52,526 nucleotides of DNA from Chlamydiota bacterium (GTDB taxonomy: Bacteria > Chlamydiota > Chlamydiia > Chlamydiales > Rhabdochlamydiaceae), in contig JABDHB010000001.1 of NCBI GenBank assembly GCA_013285775.1, positions 1 to 52,526 of the forward strand. Direction: 5' to 3'. Shown here one piece after another: positions 1,608-47,190 of this stretch; the stretch's first letter is position 1; every line of letters starts with the position of its first letter. The position numbers and the translations under genes were made by a program. The notes under the pieces were generated by a model. That model was given only the letters and a program-made list of their open reading frames with translations, was not told the DNA's origin and ran no database searches.

Positions 1608-2546
1608 ATGATGAAAGTGATCGAATTGAATTTAGCAGCAGCAAAAAAAAGAAAATCTAAGCAAACAGGATTTATCCATCACTGCTACGAAGATCCAAAA
1701 AACAGTGATACAATCCCCGTGATCGAAAATTTTTGCTACGCTGAAGCCCTTTTAAGAAGCCGTCTTGCGGAAAATGTTTTGGAAGGAAGAGCTCTTTTAG
1801 AAAAGCTCAAAGCTTTTGAGATTGATGGGCTATATCCTGTTTATCTGCATGAATACCCCAATTGCAGAGTTAAAAAGCCTGAGAGCATAAAAACAGCTCT
1901 GCCCGAGAACTGGCATCCCAGGTTTCACGCATTTATTGAAGATAAGCAGCAGGAAAAAGGGGAGCCAGAACTCACGTTAGACGATTTAAGGATGGGACAG
2001 CTTTACAATTCTTTTTCTAAAAGGGCTCTTACTGATCATCCGGTCCATTTAAGAGCTTCTCTCATAGAGCCGTCTGAGGTTCTAAACATTGAGAACAATG
2101 ATCCATTTGTAAGAAGACTCAGCGAAAATACGTTTAAAATTTGGTGGGGTGATCAGAGTGTTACCCACACATTTGCTCTTTTTACAAAAGGGAAGCTTGA
2201 AAAAATTTCTGAAGAAGAGTTTTTAATCTATTTGCCTGAAGAGCATTTAGAAGAAGAAGCTTTAGAAATTAAGTGCTTTTTGAATATGCATGAGGAGAAT
2301 AAAATTACCATGAAAGCCAGCACTTTTAAAGTGGCAGAGGTAGTTGAGATTTCTTCCAAAGAGTTAAAAATAGAACTAAGCTTTTATGCAGATGAGGGGA
2401 ATTTTTTAGGCCACATCTCGCACGGGAATCGTCCCCATTCCAAAAATGTCACCATCTTTGATGCCTACGATTGGCAAATTGCTCTTCGTTCCATCAGAAG
2501 ACCCGTGAACTCTATCGTCCGAGCAATCATAAAAATCACAAGCTAA
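1608..2546 (+). CDS. hypothetical protein
   Basis: 312-aa uninterrupted ORF with a weak AAGG Shine-Dalgarno before ATGATG. No family recognised. Confidence 0.6.
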   Translation: MMKVIELNLAAAKKRKSKQTGFIHHCYEDPKNSDTIPVIENFCYAEALLRSRLAENVLEGRALLEKLKAFEIDGLYPVYLHEYPNCRVKKPESIKTALPENWHPRFHAFIEDKQQEKGEPELTLDDLRMGQLYNSFSKRALTDHPVHLRASLIEPSEVLNIENNDPFVRRLSENTFKIWWGDQSVTHTFALFTKGKLEKISEEEFLIYLPEEHLEEEALEIKCFLNMHEENKITMKASTFKVAEVVEISSKELKIELSFYADEGNFLGHISHGNRPHSKNVTIFDAYDWQIALRSIRRPVNSIVRAIIKITS

Positions 2547-2558
2547 AAACAAGATTTT

Positions 2559-2755
2559 TTCATCGCGAAGCGATTCTTTTTCTCTCTTCATCGCGAAGCG
2601 ATTTTGGAGTGCGCAAATTTATTTGCGCTTTTCTCTACATCGATTTATCGATGTATAAGCTAGCGGCGATGAATCGCCTTAAAGAAAAGCGCAAATAAAT
2701 TTGCGCACTCCAAAATCGCTTCGCGATGAAGAGAGAATCGCTTCGCGATAAAGAA
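2559..2755. repeat. Repeat family A, copy 1: ~197-bp nested palindrome
   Basis: The left arm ttcatcgcgaagcgatt..ttcatcgcgaagcgattttggagtgcgcaaatttatttgcgcttttc is mirrored by gaaaagcgcaaataaatttgcgcactccaaaatcgcttcgcgatgaa..atcgcttcgcgataaagaa. The centre carries catcgatttatcgatg and ggcgatgaatcgcc. It lies between the stop codons of convergent genes (1608..2546 and fabI). Confidence 0.9.
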
Positions 2756-2766
2756 GAGTTTCTTCT

Positions 2767-3663
2767 CTAAACTAGTTTGAGTGACGGAGAGTCCACAGCC
2801 ATTCCCATAGCGTGCATTCCGTTATCAACGTAGAGGGTCACTCCCGTGATAGCAGACGCAGCAGGAGAAAGGAGGAATGCAGCTGCTTGGCTGACCTCTT
2901 CGGCGGTCATCTCTTTTACAAGAGGGGCATTTGCTTTTGAGTATTCAATCATGCTGTCGATTGTCCCAATGGCTCTGGCAGCTCTACTGCGAAGAGGACC
3001 GGCAGAAATGGTATTCACACGGATACCCCACTTCCTTCCAGCTTCCCAAGCAAGAGTGCGGGTGTCGCTTTCAAGAGCTGCTTTGGCAGAGCTCATACCG
3101 CCACCGTAGCCTGGAACTGCTTTTTCTGAGGCGAGATAAGTAAGGGAAACTGTAGCGCCTCCATGAGTCATGATAGGACCAAAATACTTAAGCATGCTGA
3201 CAAAAGAATAGGCGGACGCGCTAACTGCTGCTAAATACCCCTTTCTCGAAGTTTCTAAGAGAGGTTTTTTCACTTCAGGACCGTTTGCAAGGCAATGGAC
3301 GACAATATCGATTGTCCCAAAGTCTTCTGCGACTTTCGCTGCTACTTCAGAAATCGTATAATGGGAAGCTTCTTGGTACCGTTTATTCTCTTTAATTTCT
3401 TGAGGAACATCTTCTGGAGTGTCAAACGCAGCATCAAGAGCATAAAGCTTTGCGTATTCCATCAAAGAACCGTCGGAAAGGGTTCTGGATTCATCAAATT
3501 TTCCTAATTTCCACGATTGAGTAAAGATGTTGACCATAGGGGTCCAAGTTCCAATCAAAATGGTTGCGCCAGCTTCAGCGAGCCCCTTAGCAATCGCCCA
3601 GCCATACCCTTGATCGTCTCCCACACCTGCAATAAAAGCTTTTTTTCCTTTAAGATTAGCCAT
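2767..3663 (-). CDS. fabI: enoyl-[acyl-carrier-protein] reductase (NADH), plant/chlamydial type FabI
   Basis: 298 aa. Long matches to plastid-type ENR as I recall it: [93 protein letters not shown]. Confidence 0.95.
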
Positions 3664-4618: not shown

Positions 4619-4811
4619 TAGCCCAACGGGCTAAAACTGTGTAGCCTAGGGCATCGCCCTAGGTAAACGGGAAAAAATAAAATCGCAGCCTGTAGGGCTG
4701 CAACAGGGCCATAACTTTGATATTCTGTTGCAGCCCTACAGGCTGCGATTTTTATGGTGCATTTTTCCTAGGGCGATGCCCTAGGCTACAGAGTTTTAGC
4801 CCGTTGGGCTA
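4619..4811. repeat. Repeat family B, copy 1: ~193-bp palindrome built from three hairpin modules
   Basis: Module order is agcccaacgggct / cctagggcatcgccctagg / gcagcctgtagggctgc, then a centre, then gcagccctacaggctgc / cctagggcgatgccctagg / agcccgttgggct. A partial direct re-duplication of the flank extends to ~4867. Confidence 0.9.
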
Positions 4812-6730: not shown

Positions 6731-6795
6731 ACGATGAGCTGAAGAAAGAAAGAGTCCCTCTTCAGTTCAGCGTTCATCATTCATCGTTCAGCGTT
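6712..6795. repeat. Repeat family F, copy 1: imperfect inverted repeat built from (t)gaacg units
   Basis: gttgaacgttgaacgctgaacgatgagctgaag, a loop, then cttcagttcagcgttcatcattcatcgttcagcgtt. The right arm (6760..6795) is identical over 36 nt to 33191..33226. Confidence 0.75.
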
Positions 6796-12299: not shown

Positions 12300-12327
12300 A
12301 CCTGGGCTGGTTCACACACACCCTATA

Positions 12328-12496
12328 CCTAGGGCGATGCCCTAGGCTACAGAGTTTTAGCCCGTTGGGCTAAGGGATTGAGCTAACCTAGGTTGGTGAT
12401 GCTGTGAGCTTTTAGCCCGAAGGGCTAGAACTCTGTAGCCTGGGGCATCGCCCCAGGTTAGGTCCAAAATCTAATCGCAGCCTGTAGGGCTGCAAC
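12328..12496. repeat. Repeat family B, copy 2 (same modules, different order), inside the rplT-pheS spacer
   Basis: cctagggcgatgccctaggctacagagttttagcccgttgggcta (12328..12372), its inverted partner agcccgaagggctagaactctgtagcctggggcatcgccccagg (~12413..12457), and aatcgcagcctgtagggctgcaac (12473..12496). Confidence 0.9.
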
Positions 12497-13649: not shown

Positions 13650-13660
13650 GATCAAACAAA

Positions 13661-13688
13661 AAAACCCACCAATCGGTGGGTTTTTTTA
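13661..13688 (+). terminator. rho-independent terminator after tRNA-Ser
   Basis: aaacccacc-aatc-ggtgggttttttttt: a 6-bp GC stem flanked by an A-run and followed by a T-run. Confidence 0.7.
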
Positions 13689-13690
13689 TT

Positions 13691-13880
13691 TTTCCATTCT
13701 TCATCGCGAAGCGATTTTGGAGTGCGCAAATTTATTTGCGCTTTTCTCCACATCGATTTATCGATGTGTGCGTGGTGGCGGAATGCTTGTTAGATACAGC
13801 TTGTTCATCGATGAATCGATGAAGAGAAAAGCGCAAATAAATTTGCGCACTCCAAAATCGCTTCGCGATGAAGAATGGGA
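13691..13880. repeat. Repeat family A, copy 2
   Basis: tttccattcttcatcgcgaagcgattttggagtgcgcaaatttatttgcgcttttctc ... gagaaaagcgcaaataaatttgcgcactccaaaatcgcttcgcgatgaagaatgggaaa. The centre has catcgatttatcgatg and catcgatgaatcgatg. It lies between tRNA-Ser and the convergent MORN gene. Confidence 0.9.
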
Positions 13881-13936: not shown

Positions 13937-15286
13937 TCACTGCGTAGAAACTAATTTGAGAGATCCTTCTACTTGGCCATTTTTCCACTTCCCAATATAG
14001 ACTGCTCGATTTGGATAAATAAGCGTTCCATGTCCATGGAATCTACCTTCCTGAAAATCTCCAATATAGGTGGATTTTGGAGAAAGAGAAGTTTTTACGC
14101 CTCGTCCATGTGCACCTGCATTAGTAAGCTCTCCCTCGTATTCGTCTCCATTAGAGTAAATAATCTTACCCTGTGTTAAGGTGCCATCTCTCCATTGCCC
14201 TACATATTTGTCTCCGGAAGAGAAAGTGAGTGTTCCTTCTCCATGCTGTCTGTCCTCTTGCCATTGTCCAACATATTTGATCCCAGAGGCCAAAGTGAGT
14301 GTTCCTTCTCCATGCTTTCTGTCATTTTGCCATTGTCCCACATAGGTGTCTCCATTCAGCCAAGTCTGTGTGCCTTCTGAAAGTACGCCTTCAAGCCACT
14401 TTCCTATATAAGTCGTTCCTGAATGATTAATAATTGTGCCAAATCCATTTACAACAAAATTACAACATGCTGTCAAAAGCTTTAGTGAATAACTAGATGA
14501 TAAACCATTTAAAAAATTCAGAGAATTCAGGTTAGGGAATAAAGGAGGTTGTCCTAAACGCGAGCTTTTAGAAAGGACTGTGATAATTTTTTCTGAGGTG
14601 AAATTTCGAGCAGCGGTGAAATTTATAGAAGTAATTTGGGAAAGTCTTTCAGTAGGTAGTGTTTGTAAACAGTTTAGATGTTTCAAGGAAATGAAATTAA
14701 AGTCGAAGTTAGAAAAATCGATTTCTGTGAGATTGGTTAAATAGTTGGAAATTCTTTTCCAATCAGAGCCTTTTCCAAAAATAATTAATGAAAACAAGTG
14801 AATTTTTTCTAAAGAAAGACTGGTTTTTGTCTTGATTTGTTGGATTGCGACTGTTCTAGAAGCTGTATAAAATGGTCTGGAAGTCGTTCTTATAGCTAAA
14901 ATTTCTTTACAATCTAGAAATTGCAAAATGCTGGTTACGTGATCATTTTCTTCGAAAATTTTTGGCGTAGGTGTTTGTGGTTTAGTGGGCAACTCGGGAG
15001 GGAGATTAGGAGAAACTTCGGGGATAATAGAAGGAACTAAATTTACTCGGTTTTTCCAAATATAAGCAGAGGCAATAAAGTTTATAAAAGCAAGGCCTCC
15101 GCTAGCGTATGCAGTATCCAATAATTGTGTGGAAAATTGGGGTAATCTAATAAAAGTTAAGGTCATAAGAATCAGGGCAATTGCTGTAAAGGCAATGCCT
15201 ATGATGGCCGCAGACCTCATGCGCGAGCTTGCTACATGATAGGAAACTGGTTCTTGAGGGAGTGTTTTACTAATTAATATTGTCAT
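13937..15286 (-). CDS. eukaryote-like protein: N-terminal bilobed hydrophobic anchor, F-box-like motif, LRR-like region, C-terminal MORN repeats
   Basis: 449 aa. TM pair AAIIGIAFTAIALILMTLTFI and GGLAFINFIASAYIW. F-box-like ILQFLDCKEILAIRTTSRPFY (about aa 119-140). Leu/Asn-rich LRR-like stretch (LTNLTEIDFSNFDFNFISLKHLNCLQTL...NLNSLNFLNGL). About 6-7 MORN units (YVGQWQNDRKHGEGT, YVGQWQEDRQHGEGT, YEGELTNAGAHGRG, YIGDFQEGRFHGHGT, YIGKWKNGQVEG). Confidence 0.8.
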   Translation of the reverse strand: MTILISKTLPQEPVSYHVASSRMRSAAIIGIAFTAIALILMTLTFIRLPQFSTQLLDTAYASGGLAFINFIASAYIWKNRVNLVPSIIPEVSPNLPPELPTKPQTPTPKIFEENDHVTSILQFLDCKEILAIRTTSRPFYTASRTVAIQQIKTKTSLSLEKIHLFSLIIFGKGSDWKRISNYLTNLTEIDFSNFDFNFISLKHLNCLQTLPTERLSQITSINFTAARNFTSEKIITVLSKSSRLGQPPLFPNLNSLNFLNGLSSSYSLKLLTACCNFVVNGFGTIINHSGTTYIGKWLEGVLSEGTQTWLNGDTYVGQWQNDRKHGEGTLTLASGIKYVGQWQEDRQHGEGTLTFSSGDKYVGQWRDGTLTQGKIIYSNGDEYEGELTNAGAHGRGVKTSLSPKSTYIGDFQEGRFHGHGTLIYPNRAVYIGKWKNGQVEGSLKLVSTQ

Positions 15287-18905: not shown

Positions 18906-19048
18906 TTTTCTCTGCGTTCTCTGCGGCTCAGTCTTCACTCTGCGCCGATGAAATTCAGCATCCAGACAACAAGACCCTGCCTTGTTGGTTGAATACCAAA
19001 CTCCATCAGCGCAGAGTGAAGACTGAGCCGCAGAGAACGCAGAGAAAA
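18906..19048. repeat. Repeat family E, copy 1
   Basis: The arm ttttctctgcgttctctgcggctcagtcttcactctgcgccgatgaaatt is mirrored by ctccatcagcgcagagtgaagactgagccgcagagaacgcagagaaaa. It lies between the convergent M16 protease and lpxD genes. Confidence 0.9.
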
Positions 19049-23018: not shown

Positions 23019-23122
23019 TGGCCGTATTAAGGTTAGTTTGTAACTCGCAATCATAAAAAAAAATGGGAAAAATGCAAAGAGCAAAATTTATTTTAGCTAA
23101 GAAGAGAGGGGAAGAGAAGAAA

Positions 23123-23231
23123 GATCGGGCACGGGCACGCACGCGGGCTCGGGCTCGAAAGAAAAACAAACTTAAGTCTTCTTCTCTTTCCGGATTCGAG
23201 CCCGAGCCCGCGTGCGTGCCCGTGCCCGATC
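23123..23231. repeat. Repeat family D: GC-rich hairpin with perfect 37-bp arms
   Basis: gatcgggcacgggcacgcacgcgggctcgggctcgaa (23123..23159), a 35-nt loop, then the exact reverse complement (23195..23231). It lies between the recR stop and the bamA start. Confidence 0.9.
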
Positions 23232-23247
23232 TTTTTTTTCTTAGATT

Positions 23248-26866: not shown

Positions 26867-26870
26867 TTAA

Positions 26871-26900
26871 ATCGAGCCCTTCATGGGCTCGATTGTTTTA
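26871..26900 (+). terminator. hairpin terminator after acpP
   Basis: atcgagccc-ttcat-gggctcgat followed by tgtttta. 9-bp stem and a short T-rich tail. Confidence 0.55.
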
Positions 26901-26907
26901 AGTATTT

Positions 26908-27105
26908 CTTCATCGCGAAGCGATTCTTTCTTTATCGCGAAGCGATTTTTTTCTCTCTTCATCGCGAAGCGATTTTGGAGTGCGCAAATTTATTTGCGCT
27001 TTTCTCTACATCGATTTATCGATGTACAAATTGGCGGCGATAAATCGCCTTGAAGAAAAGCGCAAATAAATTTGCGCACTCCAAAATCGCTTCGCGATGA
27101 AGAGA
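26908..27105. repeat. Repeat family A, copy 3 (asymmetric: three left and one right atcgcgaagcgat modules)
   Basis: Same core arms as copies 1 and 2 (..cgattttggagtgcgcaaatttatttgcgcttttctc / gaaaagcgcaaataaatttgcgcactccaaaatcgcttcgcgatgaag). The centre has catcgatttatcgatg and ggcgataaatcgcc. It lies between convergent acpP and potD. Confidence 0.9.
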
Positions 27106-27131
27106 GAAAGAATTCTTAAGTTCTTCTTTCT

Positions 27132-27167
27132 TTCGAGCCCGAGCCCGTGTGCGAGCCCGCGCCCGAT
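27132..27167. repeat. Repeat family D, solitary half-copy
   Basis: ttcgagcccgagcccgtgtgcgagcccgcgcccgatc resembles the right arm at 23195..23231, and its purine-rich flank is similar. No inverted partner is nearby. Confidence 0.7.
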
Positions 27168-27194
27168 CTTCTCTTTTCTTTTCCCCTCTTCTAT

Positions 27195-32832: not shown

Positions 32833-33079
32833 GAATTCCATCAGCGCAGAGTGAAGACTGAGCCGCAGAGGGCGCAGAGGAAGAGGGAAAGAGCTTTTTT
32901 TTCGCAGAGGCGAAAAAGAAAGCACATCCACTCGCTTCGCTCGGAAAATGCAGTTGCAATCGACTTCCCGAGCGCAGCGAGTGAGGATATTCTTTTTTTG
33001 TCTCTGCGAAAAAAGGAATTCTTTCTCTCTTCCTCTGCGCCCTCTGCGGCTCAGTCTTCACTCCGCGCTGATGGAATTT
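32833..33079. repeat. Repeat family E, copy 2: 247-bp multi-layer palindrome (weaker symmetry out to ~32787..33128)
   Basis: Outer arms gaattccatcagcgcagagtgaagactgagccgcagagggcgcagaggaagag / ctcttcctctgcgccctctgcggctcagtcttcactccgcgctgatggaattt. Inner pairs ttttcgcagag/ctctgcgaaaa and atccactcgcttcgctcgg/ccgagcgcagcgagtgaggat. The arms are in the opposite relative order to copy 1. Confidence 0.9.
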
Positions 33080-33190
33080 GGCATTCACTGTAAAAGCTCG
33101 TTAGGTTAATGCGTATAGGCCTGCGACCTGGGCTGTAACATAACAGCCCTATCGGGCCTAAGAATTCAGAGCTCTTTCACTTCCCTATCT

Positions 33191-33226
33191 CTTCAGTTCA
33201 GCGTTCATCATTCATCGTTCAGCGTT
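33191..33226. repeat. Repeat family F, copy 2 (solitary arm)
   Basis: cttcagttcagcgttcatcattcatcgttcagcgtt is identical to 6760..6795. It covers the last codons and stop codon of acpS. Confidence 0.85.
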
Positions 33227-39216: not shown

Positions 39217-39231
39217 AGTTCTATAGAATTT

Positions 39232-39334
39232 AAGATTAACGCAAAGGCGCAAAAGCGCGAAGACGCAAAAAGAATTGAAAATATTATAAAATTCTTTTTG
39301 CGTCTTCGCGCTTTTGCGCCTTTGCGTTGATCTT
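39232..39334. repeat. Repeat family C, copy 1: hairpin with ~45-bp arms
   Basis: aagattaacgcaaaggcgcaaaagcgcgaagacgcaaaaagaatt, a 13-nt AT loop, then aattctttttgcgtcttcgcgcttttgcgcctttgcgttgatctt (one mismatch). It lies between convergent stops and touches the oppF stop codon. Confidence 0.9.
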
Positions 39335-40256
39335 AACTTGGAGTCGCATATAAGTGACACGCCACGGTTTGGGTTGGGGTGAGTTGAAGGAGTTCTGGCT
39401 TGGTCTTGTGGCATTTTTCCATGGCAAAGGGGCAGCGGTTTGCAAAGACACATCCTTGGGAAGGGATGTGAGAGATATCCCCTTTTAGGAGGATCTTTTT
39501 ACGGGCTCTTTCTTTTTTTGGGTCTGGGATAGGGATGGCAGAGAGGAGGGCTTGGGTGTAGGGGTGCTTGGGGTTTTTATAGAGGTCTTCAGATGAAGCA
39601 AGCTCCAAGATGTTGCCAAGATACATGACAGCTACTCTATTGGAGAGGTATTTTACCAAGCTAAGATCATGGGAAATGAATAGATAGGTAAGTCCTAGCT
39701 CTTTTTGGAGCTTTTTTAGAAGATTGATGATCTGGGCTTGGATCGAAACATCGAGTGCAGAAATCGGTTCATCGCAGACGATGAATTCGGGATTAAGTGC
39801 TAGGGCTCTTGCAATGCCGATCCTCTGCCTTTGTCCTCCACTAAATTCATGTGGATATCGATGCATAAACGTGGGACAGAGGCCCACAAGTTCGAGGAGT
39901 TCCTTGATTTTCGATGAGGGGATCGTTTCTTTGTGGATTTTAAAGGGTTCCTCGATGATTTCTTTTACACTCATACGGGGATTTAAAGAAGAGTAGGGAT
40001 CTTGGAAAATGATCTGCGCTTTTTTGCGCCACTCGCTCAAATCAAGGTTTAAAAGGTTTTGATCTCGATAAAGTATTTCTCCAGAATTAGGTTCGTGCAG
40101 GCGCAGAAGTGTTTTCCCAAGCGTGGATTTTCCTGAACCACTTTCTCCAACAATCCCAAGAGTTTCTCCTTGAAAAATCTCAAGTGAAACCTCATCTAAT
40201 GCTTTAACGGGGCCAAAATGCTTTTTGAGTTTTTTTATTTTGTAGAGAGCCAGCAT
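39333..40256 (-). CDS. oppF: oligopeptide/dipeptide ABC transporter ATP-binding protein
   Basis: 307 aa. Walker [10 protein letters not shown], signature [15 protein letters not shown], Walker B IVCDEP, and an Opp-type C-terminal Cys-containing extension. Confidence 0.9.
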
Positions 40257-41200: not shown

Positions 41201-41300
41201 AGATTCAACGCAAAGACGCAAAAACGCGAAGACGCAAAAAGAATTAAAATCTTTATAAAAATTTTTGCGTCTTTGCGCTTTTGCGTCTTTGCGTTAATTT
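41201..41300. repeat. Repeat family C, copy 2 (intercistronic, between oppC and oppD)
   Basis: agattcaacgcaaagacgcaaaaacgcgaagacgcaaaaagaatt, an AT loop, then atttttgcgtctttgcgcttttgcgtctttgcgttaattt. Confidence 0.9.
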
Positions 41301-43053: not shown

Positions 43054-44617
43054 GCTTTAAATCTATGTGTCCTGTGTTTGTAAAAACGACCCCTTTAACA
43101 TAAGGCTTTTGTAAATAGCTACTTGTATAAAAATAAATCGGTGCAATCGGCATATCATCTAAAAGTATCGTTTCTGCTTGATGGAGGATCTCTTCTCTTG
43201 TTTTTGGGTCGGTTGCCTGTTTAGCCATTTGGATGTATTTATCGTAGTTGAGGTTATTCCATCCTGTTCTCTCGGTATTAGATTCATCTAAAAAAGTCAC
43301 AGGATCATTATAACCCGCAACTCCTCCCATTCTTGCTACCTGATACTGATGTTGATTCGTCTCGTTTAGAAAAACCTTCCATTCTTTATTTTCGAGTTTT
43401 ACATCCACTCCAAAGGCTTCCTTCCATTGTTGCTGGATGGCCTGCGCAATTTTATGATGCCCGTCTGAAGTGTTATAGCTCAATGTAATTTTTGGGAGAG
43501 TTCCCCCTAATTCTTTTAGCCCAAGAGCAAATAATTTTTTTGCATTTGCAACATCGTGATCTAAATAAGCTGGTTTTGATGGTTCTTTCCAAAGATTTGG
43601 AGGGACGTAGGAGAGAGCAGGCTTTTGTTTTCCTTGTAAAATATTTTCAATGATTGTTTGCCTGTTGATAGCCAAAGTAAATGCCTTACGTATATTGACA
43701 TTATTAAAAGGGGGTTTTTCTGTATTAAAGATATAGAAATAGGTGCCGGCAAGGGGGGTTGTCTGTAGAGTTTGTGTTTTTAAGATCGATTGTAAGGAAT
43801 CCAACGGGATAGTAGAAAAAGGCTGTCCTGCCCAGTCAAGCTCTCCACTTTCGTACATCGAAAGCTCTGTTGTTTCATCTTGAATAATAGGAAAGAAAAG
43901 TTTTTGAAGCTTCACTTGATCTTTGTCCCAATAAGTTTCATTTTTCACCATGGTTACTTCATCATAGTGTTTCCAAGAAACCATTTTAAAAGGGCCATTT
44001 GCAAGATCGCCTTTATAAGGGAAGAAATAGGAGGTAGCTGCAAGTTCTGTAAAATAGGTGGTAGGATGTTCCAGATTGACCTGAAGCGTTTTATCGTCGA
44101 TTACTTTTATTCCAAGCTCTTCTTTTGTTGCCTTTCCAGCTTTAAAAGCTTTTCCATTTTTTATCACAAAAAGTTCATTTGCAAATTCAGAGGGGAAATT
44201 TGGAGAAAGAATTGTTGTCCAGGTATCTGCAAAATCTTGAGCTGTAACAGGTGAGCCATCTGACCACTTGGCATCTCTCAAATAAAATGTATACTCCATT
44301 TTATCTTCACTTGTTTCGAAGTGGCTGGCAATCCCAGGGCCATCATCTCGTAAAAGTCCTTCTAAACACATCCGGATCAGGTTAATCGAGGTCGTATCGG
44401 TGGCTCTGCGGGGATCAAATGTAGGAGGCTCAGTATGGATGCTCATCCTAAGCTCTTGAGAGGTAGGAGGGGGGGAGTGGTTTGTATCGCAGGAAGAGAG
44501 AAAGATTAACGCAAAGACGCAAAGACGCAAAGACGCAAAAAGAGAAAATATATCATAAAATTTATTTTTGCGTCTTTGCGCCTTTGCGTCTTTGCGTTTA
44601 AAAGGGACTATGACCAT
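43034..44617 (-). CDS. oppA: oligopeptide ABC transporter substrate-binding lipoprotein (SBP family 5)
   Basis: 527 aa. Family-5 SBP body (..DPRRATDTTSINLIRMCLEGLLR..). The N-terminus KRKDAKAQRRKNK-FYDIFSLFASLRLCVFALIFL-SSC looks like a lipoprotein signal with lipobox LSSC. That N-terminus is encoded by repeat family C, copy 3. Confidence 0.85.
   Translation of the reverse strand: MVIVPFKRKDAKAQRRKNKFYDIFSLFASLRLCVFALIFLSSCDTNHSPPPTSQELRMSIHTEPPTFDPRRATDTTSINLIRMCLEGLLRDDGPGIASHFETSEDKMEYTFYLRDAKWSDGSPVTAQDFADTWTTILSPNFPSEFANELFVIKNGKAFKAGKATKEELGIKVIDDKTLQVNLEHPTTYFTELAATSYFFPYKGDLANGPFKMVSWKHYDEVTMVKNETYWDKDQVKLQKLFFPIIQDETTELSMYESGELDWAGQPFSTIPLDSLQSILKTQTLQTTPLAGTYFYIFNTEKPPFNNVNIRKAFTLAINRQTIIENILQGKQKPALSYVPPNLWKEPSKPAYLDHDVANAKKLFALGLKELGGTLPKITLSYNTSDGHHKIAQAIQQQWKEAFGVDVKLENKEWKVFLNETNQHQYQVARMGGVAGYNDPVTFLDESNTERTGWNNLNYDKYIQMAKQATDPKTREEILHQAETILLDDMPIAPIYFYTSSYLQKPYVKGVVFTNTGHIDLKHAYIHQ
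44502..44602. repeat. Repeat family C, copy 3 (inside the 5' coding end of oppA)
   Basis: aagattaacgcaaagacgcaaagacgcaaagacgcaaaaagag, an AT loop, then tttatttttgcgtctttgcgcctttgcgtctttgcgtttaaa. Confidence 0.9.
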
Positions 44618-47174: not shown

Positions 47175-47190
47175 TTATCGCTTCGCGATA
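47175..47190. repeat. solitary repeat family A hairpin module
   Basis: ttatcgcttcgcgata lies 9 nt after the rlmI stop. It is the same atcgc-ttc-gcgat module that tiles the family A arms. Confidence 0.6.

Follow-up and report, generated by a model that had tools for sequence, protein, structure and literature searches.

A probable REPIN-type repeat family in a chlamydial genome, homologous to repeats that flank RAYT transposase genes

Results

Three long palindromes fill convergent gene junctions in a chlamydial contig

The window analyzed here, 52,526 nt of contig JABDHB010000001.1 from a Rhabdochlamydiaceae bacterium (assembly GCA_013285775.1), carries three near-identical long palindromes, hereafter family A, at positions 2559-2755 (copy 1), 13691-13880 (copy 2) and 26908-27105 (copy 3). 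A preliminary description made from the sequence alone had reported three copies with near-identical core arms, tiled by a 13-nt hairpin module in differing numbers, and our counts bear it out. Each copy contains the 18-nt core GCGCAAATTTATTTGCGC twice, on opposite strands, which makes six sites against 0.03 expected, a count reached in 0 of 100 shuffles. The module ATCGCGAAGCGAT has 11 exact sites against 0.08 expected; left and right arms hold 2+2 modules in copy 1, 1+1 in copy 2 and 3+1 in copy 3, and a lone module lies on the minus strand at 47177-47189, 11 nt past the rlmI stop and between co-directional genes. The gene names given to the junctions were equally confirmed, the flanking genes being those for FabI, PheS/tRNA-Ser, a MORN-repeat protein, FabG, AcpP, PotD and RlmI. 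The window is chlamydial, with a GC content of 41%: its FabI matches the enoyl-ACP reductase model PRK06300, the named homologues of its FabI and PotD come from metagenome-assembled genomes (MAGs) of Rhabdochlamydiaceae, Chlamydiales or Chlamydiae, and the related contigs are syntenic.

The architecture of the element is most easily followed in copy 1, which fills the gap between the stops of an open reading frame (ORF) at 1608-2546 (plus strand) and fabI at 2767-3663 (minus strand), leaving 12 nt between element end and stop codon on either side; nhmmer placed its extent at 2542-2758. Its left arm contains two modules (2562-2574 and 2590-2602) that present GCGAAGC on the plus strand and are each followed by a pyrimidine run. 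Then comes a tagged hairpin, termed REP (repetitive extragenic palindrome) for reasons given below: on the plus strand at 2604-2628, the tag TTGGAGTGC overlaps the hairpin GCGCAAAT-TT-ATTTGCGC (2611-2628), and TTTTCTC follows. The center is framed by two inner hairpins, Ha (CATCGATTTATCGATG, 2638-2653) and Hb (GGCGATGAATCGCC, 2665-2678). The right REP (2689-2713, minus strand) is the reverse complement of the left one, with the hairpin at 2689-2706 and the tag GCACTCCAA, and the two right-arm modules (2715-2727 and 2737-2749) carry GCGAAGC on the minus strand. The order of parts is TTTTGGAGT-GCGCAAATTTATTTGCGC-TTTTCTCTA-CATCGATTTATCGATG-center-GGCGATGAATCGCC-TTAAAGAAAA-GCGCAAATAAATTTGCGC-ACTCCAAAA; neither whole copies nor inner hairpins are assigned a strand. 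Copy 2, between the tRNA-Ser terminator and the MORN gene, has modules at 13703-13715 (plus) and 13857-13869 (minus) and REPs at 13717-13741 and 13831-13855; its center is longer by 29 nt, and TCATCGATGAATCGATGA replaces GGCGATGAATCGCC as the right inner hairpin. Copy 3, between the acpP terminator and potD, has modules at 26912, 26934 and 26961 (plus) and 27086 (minus) and REPs at 26975-26999 and 27060-27084, and adjoins a half copy of another palindrome family, D (27108-27176).

The copies are closely similar. A 35-nt stretch is invariant among the six REP arms, copies 1 and 3 share 96% identity across 161 nt, and the (T)TGGAGTGC tag sits 5' of the hairpin in all six REPs. REP starts lie 78, 107 and 78 nt apart within copies 1 to 3, on opposite strands, and the arms are 91-95% complementary. 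The REP hairpin itself folds with a 7-bp stem and a 4-nt loop at -7.6/-7.7 kcal/mol as DNA (z -4.3/-3.7). Fold prediction of both strands, as had been proposed, returned one long hairpin enclosing two small hairpins, with energies of -138 and -142 kcal/mol as RNA and -98 as DNA (z about -20 either way). On the strand with the order module-tag-hairpin, the module always precedes the tag, with spacings of 22, 27 or 28 nt. It contains GCGAAGC, described as an extraordinarily stable DNA mini-hairpin (PMC13037366), for which a generic DNA energy model gives just -3.5 kcal/mol. The module with its pyrimidine spacer is specific to the window lineage, being present neither in the chlamydial relatives nor in the compared elements associated with RAYT (REP-associated tyrosine transposase) genes; the varying number of modules could arise from slippage or unequal exchange. 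An Rfam scan of the window returned two tRNAs alone above threshold and no similarity of family A to any Rfam family.

All three copies stand at convergent 3' ends and occupy nearly the whole intergenic gap. Such placement could mean that the element is a bidirectional transcription stop or insulator selected by the host, whose arms present hairpins with pyrimidine runs, and then the core hairpin with TTTTCT, to incoming RNA polymerase; convergent transcripts would be terminated or their 3' ends protected, with module number tuning the strength. A terminator scan indeed found inward hairpin plus T-run motifs on the incoming strand in every arm, five to six per region compared with 0.6-1.0 in shuffles, composed of the module with TCTTTTTCTC and the core with TTTTCTCT, and effects of REPs on termination and mRNA stability are known (PMC3733652). 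However, strong canonical intrinsic terminators already serve the plus-side gene upstream of the element at two of the three sites (13658-13687 after tRNA-Ser and 26870-26894 after acpP). On either strand the long stem is preceded by pyrimidines and followed by purines, opposite to what a bidirectional terminator would show, and the individual hairpins are weak (-3.5 to -7.7 kcal/mol as DNA). Together with the junctions and relatives described below, these features make a host-selected terminator rather unlikely. Some effect on transcripts is nevertheless plausible because small hairpins with T/C runs lie on the incoming strand of every arm; we regard it as a possible side effect and not as the reason for the element's existence.

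Family A may also matter in practice. A contig from an independent short-read assembly (L003; Logan SRR8423049, 2089 nt) that encodes an identical FabI ends within copy 1, right after the second module, owing either to repeat copy number or to the palindrome itself. Family A palindromes thus coincide with a contig end and may break such assemblies; filling intergenic gaps at gene ends, they are also relevant to annotation and to operon and terminator prediction.

Homologous elements occur in high-GC bacteria

A scan of one genome per species returned exact matches to a 23-nt version of the core, GGAGTGCGCAAATTTATTTGCGC, in two MAGs of Armatimonadota (57% and 51% GC). A scan of JGI metagenomes returned 29 loci with 40 sites, all on 11 contigs of a single sample, Ga0307515; these contigs are 66-846 kb long, have 61% GC and amount to about 4.5 Mb. 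The chance expectation for this 23-mer alone is about 0.02 in 596 Gb. In Ga0307515 the core is part of a 118-nt element that varies very little among the 28 full copies found in about 250 kb of loci; it reads cccATGTGGAGT-GCGCAAATTTATTTGCGC-connector-GGAGATTTATCTCC-central hairpin (GTAG..CTAC)-GCCAATAAATTGGC-connector-GCGCAAATAAATTTGCGC-ACTCCACATggg. Window and 118-nt elements share one layout, namely tag, outer hairpin, connector, inner hairpin, center, inner hairpin, connector, outer hairpin and tag, with (T)TGGAGTGC again 5' of the hairpin. A profile built from the three window copies matched the whole core of the Ga0307515 elements (E 1e-17 to 1e-19) and the element of a Fimbriimonas MAG (L001; E 1e-16). 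Because the match spans the entire core, the similarity reflects homology of the whole unit rather than chance sharing of a 23-mer. The two forms differ at the center: in the high-GC element a central hairpin (alignment columns 54-79) contains GTAG...CTAC twice and is the most variable and most covarying part, and the window element is without it. At both ends the 118-nt elements (L004-L032) usually come within 1-13 nt of a stop codon; when extended, these ends are often CTAA/TTAG or CTAG, with stop codons at or just outside the inverted-repeat ends.

By a crude GC3-based gene call (GC at third codon positions), about 12 Ga0307515 element sites are convergent, 12 tandem and 1 divergent. A position 3' of genes is thus a feature of the elements, as it is of REPs in general (PMC3733652). 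The preliminary description had placed family A only at convergent junctions; this is true of all three window copies, which offer weak support for "only", and fails for the family at large. Occupancy of tandem and divergent junctions also counts against a terminator role. The orientations of 28 Ga0307515 elements showed no association with local GC skew in a test for lagging-strand bias (Fisher p = 0.69). A solo core in one locus (L015) was considered as the mark of a longer autonomous element and rejected, as ordinary genes come after it. The core was absent from plasmid, phage and viral collections and the module-tag junction from viral contigs; a literature search for the core sequences gave one chance primer match, in an electric-fish paper.

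The elements bracket a RAYT homologue

All ORFs of the recovered loci were screened with a RAYT consensus. The single hit, a 181-aa ORF at 1816-2361 of one Ga0307515 locus (L005), was then checked against Pfam, NCBIfam and PDB. It is tightly bracketed by elements at 1697-1814 and 2372-2488, and the upstream element contributes its start codon (1816), which falls within the terminal CACATGGG box. The protein scores 30.1 bits with Pfam Y1_Tnp (threshold 23) and matches the NCBIfam model for REP-associated tyrosine transposase at E 5e-21; among solved structures, E. coli TnpA-REP is the best match (4ER8, E 1.8e-7). In the alignment, HYH lines up with the HUH motif (HMH in 4ER8) and YVHSN with the catalytic-tyrosine helix (YIYIN). 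A 292-aa ORF between two elements of another locus (L025) was also considered as a RAYT; it has no similarity to the RAYT query and reads, by sequence only, as an rmlD-like reductase.

More than 1200 homologues of the L005 protein were retrieved, some of them named "REP-associated tyrosine transposase" or "transposase [Armatimonadota bacterium]". Six were inspected (L038, L039/L040, L041, L042, L046 and L047; 48-77% identical to the L005 protein), and all six are flanked by GGAGTGC-tagged hairpins. The tag takes the forms (CA)TGTGGAGTGC, TTGGGAGTGC or TTTTGGAGTGC, the last being an element end that L047 has in common with the window. The stems differ, examples being GCGGCGAT-TT-ATCGCCGC, GCGCTGC-TTTA-GCAGCGC, GCGCGAAC-AG-GTTCGCGC, GAGTGC-CTGC-ACTCGC and TAACGC-CTGC-GTTAGC; relatives that are still 71-77% identical to the L005 RAYT already have other stems. 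The window Hb stem-loop GGCGATGAATCGCC is itself the REP hairpin beside the homologues in L038 and L039. A constant asymmetric tag combined with a variable stem, next to one RAYT gene, is what characterizes REPs (PMC3733652, PMC3479197). For a host-selected terminator, elements that bracket a transposase gene are unexpected, and the conserved asymmetric tag common to several phyla is left unexplained.

The individual hairpins are the conserved units

Two pairing models were compared on an alignment of 27 metagenome copies. In the local model the REP hairpins are 99.5% and 98.6% paired, with compensated double changes at five pairs (AAAT/ATTT to TAAC/GTTA, TAAT/ATTA or CGAT/ATCG), and in the central hairpin both sides have changed at 7 of 12 pairs. 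In contrast, the long-range pairing of left with right REP (H1:H4) is lost at two positions in 9 of the 27 copies without compensation, and the inner hairpins Ha and Hb are never complementary to each other at 5 of 14 positions. Since local pairing is kept by compensation and long-range pairing is not, the individual hairpins are the conserved units; the 190-bp stem is a secondary result of placing two REPs in a doublet. Judged from these alignments, the constraint would fit a partner that recognizes a folded single strand. Covariation extends to the innermost pair, the one closing a 2-nt loop (pairs 21-24 and 111-114); simple hairpin stability does not explain this, and it may reflect repair templated across the hairpin or a degree of double-strand recognition.

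The latter possibility bears on a different reading, in which family A is a classical miniature inverted-repeat transposable element (MITE), that is, a deletion derivative of a DDE-transposase insertion sequence (IS) moved as double-stranded DNA, or else an array of double-strand sites for a dimeric regulator or nucleoid protein. Long terminal inverted repeats and perfect short palindromes suit it, including the covarying innermost pair, which is unable to form with a 2-nt loop and would fit two-fold double-strand recognition. Yet none of the three copies has a target-site duplication, no IS ending in this way was observed, searches of plasmid, phage and viral collections returned no matches, and the sole gene found bracketed by the elements is the Y1/HUH RAYT homologue. 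RAYT relatives, moreover, swap stems wholesale and keep GGAGTGC, which fits a hairpin with a tag and not a fixed dimer site. We consider both forms of this reading very unlikely. The short palindromes had been suggested to be dimeric protein-binding sites with a role beyond RNA hairpins; the wider role is upheld by the REP homologues that flank RAYT genes, and the dimeric site is disfavored by relatives whose stems change while the tag stays. Because of this same pattern, a single-strand-specific Y1/HUH transposase is the likely protein partner and a dimeric double-strand DNA binder a less likely one.

Family A is absent from related chlamydial loci

Family A was absent from 80.6 kb of five related chlamydial loci, in which about 4.6 copies would be expected at window density (Poisson P(0) about 0.01). 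These loci include the fabI junction and the potD-acpP region, syntenic but rearranged, and offer no clean pair of filled and empty sites. In the closest relative (L033), fabI is separated by just 15 nt from a different convergent gene, and at the corresponding junction a relative with 86% identical FabI (L035) has, at 1600-1730, a long palindrome of unrelated sequence, CCTCTGTGGTTTCTTGTCTCTGTGGTTAA ... reverse complement. Different lineages thus have different elements at this kind of site. In a further relative (L045) the potD-acpP region has three extra small ORFs between the genes and no family A. That relatives do without the element at the same junctions is another point against a host-selected terminator, and the distribution of copies suggests that family A was gained within the window lineage.

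The REP is identical over 23-27 nt between the chlamydia and Armatimonadota-like genomes, while RAYT relatives of 71-77% identity differ in the stem; horizontal acquisition is the simplest reading of this pattern. On such comparisons, transfer of the system across phyla into the chlamydial lineage appears plausible, if unproven. REPINs, the inverted REP doublets discussed below, are described as passing almost only by vertical descent (bioRxiv 10.1101/2021.07.10.451892), with rare transfer conceded for long time scales (PMC5581495).

Other repeats in the window

Family A is one of five palindrome families, A-E, that together contribute 13 palindromic elements in 52.5 kb. Family B (4619-4811 and 12321-12458) is a compound palindrome of small GC-rich hairpins, both copies of which lie between co-directional genes. 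Two of its hairpins bear a GTAG tag, GTAG-CCTAGGGC..GCCCTAGG and GTAG-GGCTGCAAC..GTTGCAGCC-CTAC. Because such hairpins are of the classical GTAG REP type, there seem to be two or more REP families in this organism. The arms of family C (18906-19048 and 32834-33087) are tiled by the direct repeat CTCTGCG. Family D (23112-23242 and 27108-27176) has the arm repeat CGGGCN and occurs also in the closest relative (L033, 14458-14580), and family E (39227-39339, 41207-41295 and 44502-44598) has the arm repeat CGCAAAG. Apart from these palindromes, an exact 38-nt direct repeat, CTCTTCAGTTCAGCGTTCATCATTCATCGTTCAGCGTT, is present at 6758-6795 and 33189-33226, and within the MORN gene three tandem 69-nt repeats (14182-14388), 62-80% identical, reflect the 23-aa MORN period in DNA.

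Discussion

An inverted REP pair with a spacer is known as a REPIN (REP doublet forming hairpins; PMC3116915, PMC3337134). The fixed asymmetric tag, the freely changing stem, the single adjacent RAYT gene and the inverted pair of REPs around a spacer place family A with this type, and we think it likely that family A consists of REPIN-type doublets of a GGAGTGC-tagged REP, homologous to the repeats that flank RAYT genes. Each REP would consist of a 5' tag, (T)TGGAGTGC, and an 8-bp hairpin, GCGCAAAT-TT-ATTTGCGC, and two of them would be inverted around a short structured spacer; in the window lineage both ends would have been extended by one to three 13-nt mini-hairpin modules, each with a pyrimidine run. 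A RAYT enzyme is predicted to bind the folded hairpin and unpaired tag on single-stranded DNA and to cut beside them, and if it reads hairpin and tag, the functional unit would be each local hairpin with its tag and not the 190-bp stem. A cognate RAYT would be present, or would formerly have been present, in the window organism and would have spread the window copies, which would gather just downstream of genes because insertions there are least harmful. The inward-facing hairpin and T-run motifs would stop or stabilize convergent transcripts incidentally. Two other kinds of core had been entertained and dropped: an attC-like one, as the attC R''/R' spacing is absent, and a dif/Xer-like one, as the conserved XerD arm is absent.

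Several observations weigh against the REPIN assignment. Only three copies are known in the window organism, in 52.5 kb and all extragenic, and none of them has a target-site signature. The window has no RAYT-like ORF by searches with a RAYT consensus and the L005 RAYT (tblastn E > 1), and the inspected RAYT homologues are all on contigs of 49-60% GC, none of them low-GC chlamydial; homologues selected by amino-acid composition for a low-GC host were likewise on non-chlamydial contigs of 49-56% GC. The L005 protein reaches 75.1 bits on the NCBIfam RAYT model, slightly below the cut-off of 80. The GGAGTGC tag is neither GTAG nor CGTC, the tags of the two described REP super-families (PMC3733652), so family A is placed in neither. 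Finally, the terminal modules have no counterpart in RAYT-associated elements, which leaves part of the window element unexplained by a REPIN model.

The missing RAYT, the lack of one in chlamydial context among the inspected homologues and the small number of known copies would also suit dead relics: one or more REPINs left by horizontal transfer or by an extinct RAYT system, immobile and kept because they are harmless at gene ends. REPINs are indeed reported to decay after RAYT loss (bioRxiv 10.1101/2021.07.10.451892). However, the identical REP arms and the 96% identity of copies 1 and 3, a value that would fit a recent duplication, indicate little decay, and three copies in 52 kb against none in 80.6 kb of relatives argue for multiplication within the lineage. 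We accordingly rate relics as quite improbable. An intact RAYT between TTGGAGTGCGCAAATTTATTTGCGC copies in the same genome would mean a live REPIN-RAYT system; its absence would favor relics.

A more far-reaching scenario extends the REPIN assignment. A complete REPIN-RAYT system, or at least its REPINs, might have passed from an Armatimonadota-like bacterium into an obligate intracellular chlamydia, founded a new multiplying population there and gained lineage-specific arrays of the ultra-stable GCGAAGC mini-hairpin at its ends. We offer this tentatively and find it on balance doubtful. If true, it would document the cross-phylum establishment of a REPIN population, which current theory deems "vanishingly" unlikely, and GGAGTGC would mark a third super-family of tagged REPs, one with a RAYT clade of its own. 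In Proteobacteria, where REPs and REPINs have been studied in depth, they are regarded as partners of single-copy RAYT genes that pass by vertical inheritance. The GGAGTGC-tagged REPs and their RAYT clade fall outside both described tag super-families and were seen in genomes of 49-61% GC, the named ones Armatimonadota; our literature search found no paper on this REP family or its RAYT clade. With one family member in a chlamydial genome whose relatives are without it, and with a REP identical to that of distant bacteria, horizontal establishment of REPINs becomes directly testable given the complete genome.

Among known systems, the TIRYT/TIRtron elements of Di Nocera et al. 2013 (PMC3733652) resemble family A in that repeats of about 118 nt, longer than simple REPs and with self-complementary tracts, flank a RAYT-like gene and are also dispersed singly or as doublets, in non-proteobacterial phyla. 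Several TIRs are reported to share GGGGWSAS, which the family A tag (GTGGAGTG / TTGGAGTG) does not fit, and the flanking repeat here is a clear doublet of a tagged hairpin and so nearer to a REPIN. Bidirectional intrinsic terminators likewise place GC-containing hairpins at convergent 3' ends, with T-rich runs on the strand of the incoming transcript. They differ in that the family A palindrome as a whole is T-rich 5' and A/G-rich 3' on both strands, is preceded by canonical terminators at two sites, and is a dispersed repeat whose homologues flank a transposase gene. Rickettsia palindromic elements (RPEs), Correia/NEMIS and ERIC are, like family A, 100-200 bp long with long inverted arms and dispersed through compact genomes, some of which belong to obligate intracellular bacteria; unlike family A, RPEs insert in frame into genes, and Correia elements have TA duplications and IHF sites. 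To our knowledge, none of these is made of tagged REP hairpins or tied to a Y1 transposase.

The closest comparison is with REP/REPIN-RAYT systems such as the E. coli REP/BIME with TnpA-REP (PDB 4ER8) and the Pseudomonas fluorescens REPINs (PMC3116915, PMC3337134, PMC3479197). Family A differs from them in its GGAGTGC tag as opposed to GTAG, in a spacer built of the conserved small hairpins Ha and Hb (with the central GTAG...CTAC hairpin added in the high-GC host), and in the extra terminal GCGAAGC mini-hairpin arrays of the window copies. Its hosts are Chlamydiota and Armatimonadota-like bacteria instead of Proteobacteria, its REP sequence is common to different phyla whereas the known systems are described as almost exclusively vertical, and no RAYT was found in the 52.5 kb of the window organism. 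What the two have in common is a short hairpin palindrome with a conserved unpaired 5' tag, the inverted REP pair with a short spacer, extragenic copies that are numerous in Ga0307515 and mostly follow closely on gene ends, and a RAYT gene with HUH and tyrosine motifs between closely placed repeats, as seen in L005 and at six loci homologous to it. Family A is a new family of a kind already known, and not a new kind of system.

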